Positions 21,539 to 21,955 of a stretch of DNA of 64,000 nucleotides are shown here, in pieces; positions within the stretch are counted from its first letter, which is position 1; every line of letters starts with the position of its first letter. Made by a program: the position numbers and the translations under genes. This DNA is from Escherichia phage Ec_Makalu_003. The notes beneath the pieces were generated by a model that saw only the letters and a list, made by a program, of their open reading frames with translations, was not told where the DNA came from and searched no databases. The stretch lies in the sequence record MN882349.1. One strand, written 5' to 3'.

Positions 21539-21955
21539 TTAGAGAGATTCGGTAAAGGTGCGCGCGATCACGTCACGCTGCTGGTCTGGAGTCAGACTAT
21601 TGAAGCGCACCGCGTAACCAGAAACGCGAATTGTAAGCTGCGGGTACTTCTCAGGATGTTCAACCGCGTCAAGCAACATTTCTCTTAACAATACGTTAAC
21701 ATTTAGGTGTTGGCCTCCTTCGACAACCGGAGCACCATTATCTACAACAACCGGACGGAAGCTAGTTGTGTGCAGTGCCAGCGAATCGACGTCTTCGGCG
21801 GTGATCACATGGTCTTCTGCGAAAGTTTTACTAACAATTACTTTAGCGCCGATCAGTGCTTTCGGTTCGGATACCAGAATCATAGGCGCGAAGTGTCCAC
21901 CGATAATAGTACCTTTATGCTCACCTTTCATGATTTGAATTGCTTTAAATTCCAT
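21539..21955 (-). CDS. autonomous glycyl-radical cofactor (GrcA/YfiD-like)
   Basis: 138 aa; C-terminal '[49 protein letters not shown]' carries the RVSGY glycyl-radical signature. Confidence 0.85.

Follow-up and report, generated by a model that had tools for sequence, protein, structure and literature searches.

The sequence analysed here, referred to below as the window, is a stretch of 64,000 nucleotides from Escherichia phage Ec_Makalu_003 (MN882349.1), an RB49-like Krischvirus, a T4-type phage of E. coli. The gene under study, vs.6, encodes a small protein with a glycyl-radical domain at its C-terminus. An earlier note, made from the sequence alone, had placed an open reading frame of 138 amino acids at this position; its coordinates were exact, while the strand (minus) had been left unstated. 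The gene and its signals are as follows.

21539-21955, minus strand: vs.6 coding sequence with an ATG start (138 aa, 15.2 kDa, zero cysteine)
21725-21955, minus strand: N-terminal half of vs.6, residues 1-77, as seen in alignments
21542-21724, minus strand: C-terminal glycyl-radical domain of vs.6 (residues 78-138), the homologue of PflB at about 699-759
21617-21619, minus strand: GGT codon of Gly113, the predicted radical-bearing glycine in RVSGYAV, located by motif position and direct reading
21960-21965, minus strand: Shine-Dalgarno sequence GAGGTG, 4 nt upstream of the vs.6 ATG
21496-21530, minus strand: intrinsic terminator-like hairpin followed by a T-run, with a 10-bp GC-containing stem (AAGCCAATCC/GGGTTGGCTT)

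Vs.6 is a stand-alone small protein: its reading frame runs from an ATG to a stop codon of its own and is served by an intact Shine-Dalgarno sequence and an intact terminator. The Shine-Dalgarno sequence directly follows the TAA stop codon (21966-21968) of an upstream 41-aa ORF. At the other end, the scan placed the terminator-like hairpin 8 nt beyond the vs.6 stop codon; the hairpin is kept in relatives, and the annotations of G37-3 and G2248 name it a terminator. A promoter scan returned only generic sigma-70-like matches at about background frequency (10 against 6.3±3.1 expected), none of which was taken as a promoter, and neither Rfam at gathering thresholds nor a tRNA scan gave a match anywhere in the window. 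The RB49 orthologue (RB49p099, "vs.6") is flanked by vs.8 and the 41-aa ORF at one end and by nrdC.11 at the opposite end, and the gene in the window occupies the same position.

The genes for an anaerobic ribonucleotide reductase and its activase, which the earlier note had described as lying alongside, were both confirmed by profile, but at a distance of ~17.5 kb from vs.6 the word is a loose one.

2202-4064, minus strand: nrdD (620 aa, no intron), for the anaerobic ribonucleotide reductase; 880 bits with NF006732 (cutoff 657)
273-782, minus strand: nrdG, radical-SAM activase of NrdD (169 aa from the listed TTG start); 166 bits with TIGR02491 (cutoff 126)

The two genes are separated from each other by two unrelated ORFs, as in RB49. 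In the NrdD of the window, a Cys4 zinc-finger-like segment precedes the protein's own glycyl-radical motif, RRVSGYLG (G595).

The resemblance of the Vs.6 C-terminus to the bacterial cofactor GrcA, which the earlier note had pointed out, was borne out by matches far beyond chance. The Pfam Gly_radical family (PF01228) matched residues 78-119 with E=1.6e-16 (61 bits, cutoff 22). The top match in the PDB was 6OWR, E. coli GrcA/YfiD (E=4e-33), followed by the PFL structures 1H16 and 1CM5 (E~6e-27), and glycyl-radical enzymes other than GrcA and PFL were far weaker. Over its last 61 residues the protein is identical to E. coli GrcA at 56 positions (92%), and BLASTP gave 50/61 identities (82%, E=1e-33) with the C-terminus of PflB. 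A closer look at this domain reveals a mosaic pattern, in that the segment REMLLDA is as in PflB (GrcA has RETLEDA) and the remainder is as in GrcA. The radical-bearing glycine, whose absence from a correct alignment would by the earlier note's own test have overturned its reading, is in place when Vs.6 is aligned with GrcA, the T4 homologue and PflB: G113 of Vs.6 corresponds to G102 of GrcA, G95 of T4 Vs.6 and G734 of PflB, and the surrounding heptapeptide RVSGYAV is identical in all four. The G113 column was invariant in alignments of 32 and of 62 homologous sequences, together with ~24 further positions of the domain.

Among the NCBIfam models, the best for Vs.6 was that of GrcA itself (TIGR04365, E=3e-39), although its 134.2 bits are below the equivalog cutoff of 170. 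E. coli GrcA passed with 234 bits and T4 Vs.6 failed with 151.1 bits; since the latter is a validated protein, the cutoff separates bacterial from phage N-termini and does not track function. With the caveat of this formal failure at the bacterial equivalog cutoff, the window protein is filed, on its similarity, as one of the GrcA/Y06I kind. Furthermore, the phage family phrog_1209, which is labelled as of "unknown function", aligned from end to end (E=3e-51; residues 3-138 of Vs.6 against profile positions 1-121 of 121).

We also considered whether Vs.6 could be a full-length PFL-type enzyme, and ruled this out. The model for full-length PFL (TIGR01255) covered the protein only at positions 683-744 of 744, with 88 bits against a cutoff of 994, so that the barrel is not covered, and there is no cysteine. 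A protein devoid of cysteine could not work as such an enzyme by itself and needs a partner. The same follows from comparison with the C-terminal domain of PflB (1H16/2PFL), in which the radical glycine has the same context: Vs.6 is without the 10-stranded barrel and the catalytic Cys418/Cys419, and can therefore act only as a detachable cofactor of an enzyme. An AlphaFold2 (AF2) model of Vs.6 (mean pLDDT 80) had 6OWR as its top Foldseek match (E=1e-6) and also retrieved PFL 1CM5 (E=4e-4).

The N-terminal half is of a different character. It is 99% conserved among Krischvirus alleles but only 15-36% identical to the N halves of the T4 and bacterial proteins (about 31% to T4 and about 21% to E. 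coli GrcA). Phage-type motifs are common to it and T4 Vs.6, namely KAxQI..G.HKGTI (KAIQI..GEHKGTI in the window) and IVSKTF.ED, and an extra segment of ~17 aa at residues ~19-36 is present in the window protein and missing from T4 Vs.6. It aligns weakly with GrcA, with Q7, I8, R67 and the IV.K and ED motifs kept. AF2 predicted a beta-rich N half (pLDDT ~80-89) in which residues 21-30 form a weak loop, followed by a flexible linker over residues 70-90, and Foldseek searches with this half returned KOW/SH3-like matches at E~1, which are not significant. In solution, residues 1-60 of YfiD are disordered by NMR, yet YfiD needs this N half in order to bind PFL that has been cleaved and to be activated efficiently (Andorfer et al. 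2021, PMC8683613). The idea that the phage N half is folded where that of YfiD is disordered was dropped, because the AF2 control on E. coli GrcA gave an equally confident, ordered and beta-rich prediction for an N half that is disordered by NMR, and the prediction is hence non-discriminating.

The vs.6 gene is widespread. A 1.6-kb region around it shows an identity of 98.9% with Escherichia phage Ec_Makalu_002 and of 96.7% with RB49; the close matches to the region come without exception (58/58) from Krischvirus-type T4-like coliphages, and the ORF is intact in every one. Several of these relatives, as well as T4 vs.6 (NP_049730, 120 aa), carry the annotation "autonomous glycyl radical cofactor". 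In a wider tblastn search, 1580 of 50,697 phage records contained a homologue, among them T4-like and T5-like phages and phages of Klebsiella, Salmonella, Aeromonas and Vibrio. Earlier, Nolan et al. (2006, PMC1524935) had compared six T4-like genomes and listed vs.6 as an ORF with a Gly_radical domain that all of them conserve (6/6).

The last 61 codons of the window gene are 72.7% identical to E. coli grcA in nucleotides and 91.8% in amino acids, with nucleotide identities of 72.1% to pflB and 71.6% to T4 vs.6. In comparisons with grcA, pflB and T4, synonymous differences have reached saturation (pS 0.77-0.83), with pN at 0.09-0.13; for host grcA the values are pS ~0.83 and pN 0.09. Against RB49, the dN/dS of vs.6 is 0.02. 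With synonymous sites saturated, pN low and dN/dS at 0.02, the window gene is old in its lineage and under strong purifying selection, and is neither a fresh nor a decaying capture. A recent capture of this allele from the host was also sought directly and rejected: in 5,426 E. coli genomes the best nucleotide match was the 3′ end of pflB, at 73.5% over 185 nt, and synonymous sites are saturated.

The closest characterised protein is T4 Vs.6 (Y06I), of which the window protein is the Krischvirus orthologue. The two are 58% identical over their full length (E=4e-47) and 89% identical in the C-terminal domain, share the radical glycine and the phage-type N-terminal motifs, and are encoded by genes that likewise adjoin vs.8, on the same strand, in an early-region block. 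They differ in several respects. The window protein is longer by 18 aa and has the extra ~17-aa segment; nrdC.11 abuts vs.6 in the window and not in T4; the 3′ module of the T4 gene is 97.3% identical in nucleotides to K-12 grcA, whereas that of the window is 72-73% identical to grcA, pflB and T4; and biochemical data belong to the T4 protein only, the window protein being known here from its sequence. E. coli GrcA/YfiD (b2579; 6OWR) is likewise small and stand-alone, and shares with Vs.6 the near-identical domain and the C-terminal TFTESL. It differs in its N half, in its score with TIGR04365 (see above) and in REMLLDA versus RETLEDA; in addition, the window gene is on a lytic phage and so lies outside host regulation.

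The identity of the gene is already known, as vs.6 of T4-type coliphages, the T4 counterpart of which was characterised biochemically in 2001. In that work, as summarised in a later paper, both E. coli YfiD and T4 Y06I acquired a glycyl radical through PFL-AE and restored PFL that had been cleaved by O2 (Wagner et al. 2001, PMID 11444864, summarised in PMC8683613). A 2026 review repeats this summary of the YfiD/Y06I validation (PMC13450708). By analogy with the T4 protein, Vs.6 of the window would also be activated by PFL-AE and rescue cleaved PFL. The earlier note's identification of a phage-encoded, GrcA-like autonomous glycyl-radical cofactor is correct, and it is very probable, from the homology, the position of the radical glycine and the orthology with T4 vs.6, that this cofactor re-arms host PFL. 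Points against this reading are the divergence of the N half, the part that YfiD needs to bind cleaved PFL, and the score below the TIGR04365 cutoff, a shortfall that the T4 protein shares.

Whether such a protein would rescue host pyruvate formate-lyase or the phage NrdD had been posed as an open question. It is now largely answered. Taken together, the PflB match (82%) and the reported in vitro restoration of PFL by T4 Y06I (PMC8683613) point to a PFL-type enzyme of the host; with NrdD only RVSGY is shared. By profile scores, the target would be PflB and probably TdcE (E=4e-25 with TIGR01255, against 7e-12 with the model of the PflD/YbiW type).

The proposed mechanism starts from a fermenting cell under infection. 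Were O2 to reach such a cell, it would react with the glycyl radical at G734 of host PflB, and the chain would be cut there with loss of the C-terminal radical loop. Vs.6 would provide the same loop as a separate protein (residues 78-138), attached to an N-terminal half for docking. It would dock on the cleaved PflB with the help of the N half, and its loop would enter the vacated site. The host radical-SAM activase PflA would then turn G113 into a glycyl radical, which would be passed to C419/C418 of PflB, and conversion of pyruvate to acetyl-CoA and formate would resume, with ATP from acetate kinase. For the phage, the presumed benefit is that its own spare part would sustain fermentative acetyl-CoA and ATP during anaerobic or micro-oxic infection. 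A phage copy would be needed because host shutoff of the T4 type stops the supply of stress-induced host grcA. This role would parallel that of nrdD and nrdG in keeping dNTP synthesis going. A comparable case is the psbA gene (D1) of cyanophages, where a lytic phage likewise brings along the component of a host energy machine that is damaged most readily, for use after host shutoff. The protein and the chemistry are unrelated, however, the damage being photodamage of photosystem II in one case and oxygen cleavage of a glycyl-radical enzyme in the other. A literature search for an in vivo role of phage GrcA returned nothing specific.

A variant of this mechanism would keep host PFL as the target but have the radical put on Vs.6 by the phage NrdG, alone or together with PflA. 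The incentive to consider it comes from Aeromonas phages. In phiWae14 and phiAS5 the grcA homologue comes third in an nrdD-nrdG-grcA operon, where the stop codon of nrdG overlaps the start of grcA (ATGA) and the two genes are translationally coupled. Moreover, the substrate motif in NrdD, RRVSGY, overlaps Vs.6 in RVSGY, and NrdG and PflA belong to one activase family (a weak PFLA match; BLASTP 28% over 47 aa, E=2e-5). The adjacency in Aeromonas phages suggests co-regulation, or NrdG as an alternative activase, and does not suggest NrdD as the target. Against the variant, PFL-AE is described as sufficient for T4 Y06I in the summary of that work (PMC8683613), vs.6 and nrdG are 17.5 kb apart in the window and are not co-transcribed, a search for support for cross-activation found none, and the adjacency may merely reflect co-regulated anaerobic functions. 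We regard activation by NrdG as unlikely. If it were true, the phage would re-arm host PFL independently of host PflA and its anaerobic module would be self-contained; it would also mean that a class III RNR activase uses a substrate across families.

A further possibility is that Vs.6 modulates the host enzyme, by binding intact or inactive full-length PflB or by titrating PflA, and so redirects pyruvate and formate metabolism. In vivo, E. coli GrcA is reported to reactivate PflB that is full-length but inactive (Kammel and Sawers 2022), from which it would appear that a spare part need not act on cleaved PflB alone, and the N half of the phage protein is strongly unlike that of the bacterial one. 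However, the radical glycine and all invariant residues of the domain are under strong purifying selection. This fits a radical carrier and exceeds what a mere binder or decoy would need, and we consider a purely modulatory role highly improbable.

The other answer to the question of the target, that Vs.6 is a spare part for the phage NrdD and replaces its C-terminal glycyl-radical segment after oxygen cleavage, was rejected as the main one and is extremely improbable. It has some appeal, in that nrdD and vs.6 occur in one genome, the window NrdD and Vs.6 share the pentapeptide RVSGY, the phiWae14 operon has nrdD, nrdG and grcA in a row with overlapping stop and start codons, and a part in nucleotide metabolism has been put forward as a speculation (Nolan et al. 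2006, PMC1524935). However, BLASTP of Vs.6 against the window NrdD gave the pentapeptide alone (E=1.7), as compared with 61 aligned residues for PflB, and with five shared residues the rescue of NrdD is without sequence support. The radical loop of NrdD follows the Cys4 zinc-finger-like segment and has flanks unrelated to Vs.6. Even the operon-linked Aeromonas homologue resembles PFL, with 69% identity to PflB (E=1e-27), and is unlike NrdD (E=1.7), so that in this pair too only the motif is common. The window NrdD reads RVSGY at this position and the Aeromonas phage NrdD reads RVCGY. The effect reported for the T4 orthologue in vitro, moreover, is on PFL (PMC8683613).

That vs.6 is a functionless passenger, a remnant of host capture kept by linkage, would agree with its being non-essential in T4 laboratory genetics (PMC1524935) and with the label of PHROG 1209, but this reading is effectively refuted by the pattern of conservation, with the ORF intact in all close relatives, homologues in so many phage records, and synonymous sites saturated relative to host genes in the face of 92% residue conservation and a dN/dS of 0.02 against RB49.

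Re-arming of host PFL is accordingly retained as the preferred reading of vs.6, and the remaining observations concern how its 3′ end varies between genomes. In a number of Krischvirus relatives the N halves of Vs.6 are 99% identical to that of the window, yet the C-terminal domains are only 64-70% identical. Alignment of the DNA shows flanks of 93-100% identity enclosing a sharply delimited divergent tract of 52-85% identity, from ~21753 to ~21487 (its start is at ~21772 in G37-3 and FL04). The tract ends at an insertion of ~0.6 kb, the site of which is empty in the window.

21486-21487, no strand assigned: empty HNH/NUMOD4 homing-endonuclease site between the vs.6 terminator and nrdC.11, located by alignment with AV108, G37-3, FL04, JK32 and phiS

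The inserted ORFs are free-standing homing endonucleases with NUMOD4 and HNH_3 domains (Pfam). Two types were found. One, of 197 aa, is present in AV108, G37-3 and JK32, with its domains assigned by Pfam in these three, and FL04 has a near-identical ORF of the same size. The other, of 175 aa, is found in phiS and is 28% identical to the first. Across the nine Krischvirus genomes compared for endonuclease and allele, all five with the divergent allele carry the insertion (5/5; AV108, G37-3, FL04, JK32 and phiS), and all four of the RB49 type are without it (4/4; the window, RB49, kaaroe and G2248). G2248 has no endonuclease gene, but does have a phiS-like patch confined to 21658-21716, which may mark the region of cleavage or immunity. 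Judged from these alignments, the pattern is the classic footprint of a free-standing homing endonuclease, which targets a conserved gene next to it and brings a resistant flanking allele along, and the window presumably holds the endonuclease-free, cleavable allele of vs.6. A tblastn search with the module of the JK32 type gave ~10 close matches, those identified being endonuclease-bearing Krischviruses, and all others were at or below ~80% identity; the donor lineage was not found by this search. Nothing specific was returned by a literature search for a Krischvirus homing endonuclease linked to vs.6.

The 3′ end of the T4 gene has a different history. Over its last 183 nt it has an identity of 97.3% with E. 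coli K-12 grcA. This similarity sets in abruptly with the codons for EGGQH and runs to the stop codon, and GC3 rises from 19% to 40% across the boundary. This level of identity, the abrupt boundary and the jump in GC3 together mark the T4 vs.6 allele as a recent chimera with host grcA.

The RB49-type phage thus has, in nrdD, nrdG and vs.6, the usual T4-like kit for growth in fermenting or micro-oxic E. coli, and the T4 orthologue of vs.6 is one of just two glycyl-radical "spare part" proteins to have been validated biochemically, the other being YfiD (Andorfer et al. 2021, PMC8683613). The identification of vs.6 itself is of less interest than the cassette and homing-endonuclease pattern. The coding sequence of the radical domain behaves as an exchangeable cassette, linked to endonucleases in Krischvirus and recently recombined with grcA in T4. 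As such, vs.6 would be a compact natural system for the study of how selfish endonucleases and recombination with the host remodel an auxiliary metabolic gene whose chemistry stays the same.

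Five sister Krischviruses (AV108, G37-3, FL04, JK32 and phiS) each have a free-standing homing-endonuclease gene (NUMOD4/HNH) inserted at the position equivalent to window 21486/21487, 3′ of vs.6 (21539-21955, minus strand), which encodes the GrcA-like glycyl-radical cofactor. The variable region of the window and its equivalents in the vs.6-region DNA of these relatives (L006-L009 and L011) are as follows:

Window 21486-21775: vs.6 3′ half, terminator and intergenic sequence
L006:1501-2556: same region
L007:1501-2528: same region
L008:1501-2559: same region
L009:1501-2558: same region
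L011:1501-2559: same region

The endonuclease gene was present in all five genomes with a divergent allele and absent from all four RB49-type genomes (the window, RB49, kaaroe and G2248). In exactly those genomes that bear it, the 3′ half of vs.6, coding for the radical domain, falls to 52-85% nucleotide identity with the window, and both flanks are 93-100% identical. The inserted endonucleases fall into two groups, one of 197 aa and one of 175 aa, with only 28% identity between them. The divergent 3′ half and adjacent endonuclease gene have the appearance of a cassette linked to homing, through either immunity or co-conversion, in which case the window would hold the cleavable allele.

G2248 (L010), which lacks the endonuclease gene 3′ of vs.6, differs from the window mainly in a 60-bp patch (window 21658-21716, codons about 80-99, GGQH...LLDAV) that is similar to the phiS allele. 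A short tract of gene conversion could explain this patch, which could also mark the location of the endonuclease recognition site. Moreover, identity between the window and RB49 falls locally to 74-90% at 21700-21757 within vs.6, although RB49 too is without the endonuclease gene, and the 3′ module has a dS of 0.35, versus 0.06 for the 5′ 210 nt. Therefore, the radical-domain coding region is also mosaic within RB49-type alleles.

Window 22577-22640 is a second variable site, with vs.8 on one side and the endolysin gene (22639-23028) on the other. Here phiS, JK32, G2248 and FL04 carry a 576-bp ORF, annotated as a homing/HNH endonuclease (in JK32, an AP2/ERF-type factor), which the window, RB49 and AV108 lack:

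L007:242-817: 576-bp ORF
L009:242-817: 576-bp ORF
L010:237-812: 576-bp ORF
L011:241-816: 576-bp ORF

The vs.8-vs.6 block thus has mobile-endonuclease insertion sites on both flanks. Downstream of vs.6, nrdC.11 (20755-21453, minus strand) matches Pfam RlaP (E=1.4e-13), a DNA polymerase beta family nucleotidyltransferase of an RNA-repair pathway; some relatives have it wrongly annotated as a glutaredoxin or thioredoxin.

The final 183 nt of T4 vs.6 (L003:7558-7740) are 97.3% identical to the 3′ end of E. coli K-12 grcA (L004:1567-1752; dS 0.07). The similarity has abrupt edges, at the EGGQH codons and the stop codon, and GC3 shifts from 19% in the 5′ part to 40% in the 3′ part. Taken together, these data identify the T4 allele as a recent phage-host chimera. 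In contrast, the corresponding 3′ module of window vs.6 is 72.7% identical to grcA, with synonymous sites saturated.

The window nrdD (2202-4064), encoding the anaerobic ribonucleotide reductase (RNR), has no intron, and its radical motif (RRVSGYLG) contains Ser in place of the Cys found in Aeromonas phage NrdD. As in RB49, the interval between nrdD and nrdG, the activase gene, holds two ORFs (994-2099; 183 and 180 aa) of unknown function. The Aeromonas phage phiWae14 (L012:1373-4375) has nrdD, nrdG and grcA in a single operon, the nrdG stop overlapping the grcA start (ATGA). Its GrcA is still like pyruvate formate-lyase, not NrdD. This arrangement suggests that grcA is co-regulated with the anaerobic RNR module, or that NrdG is used as its activase.
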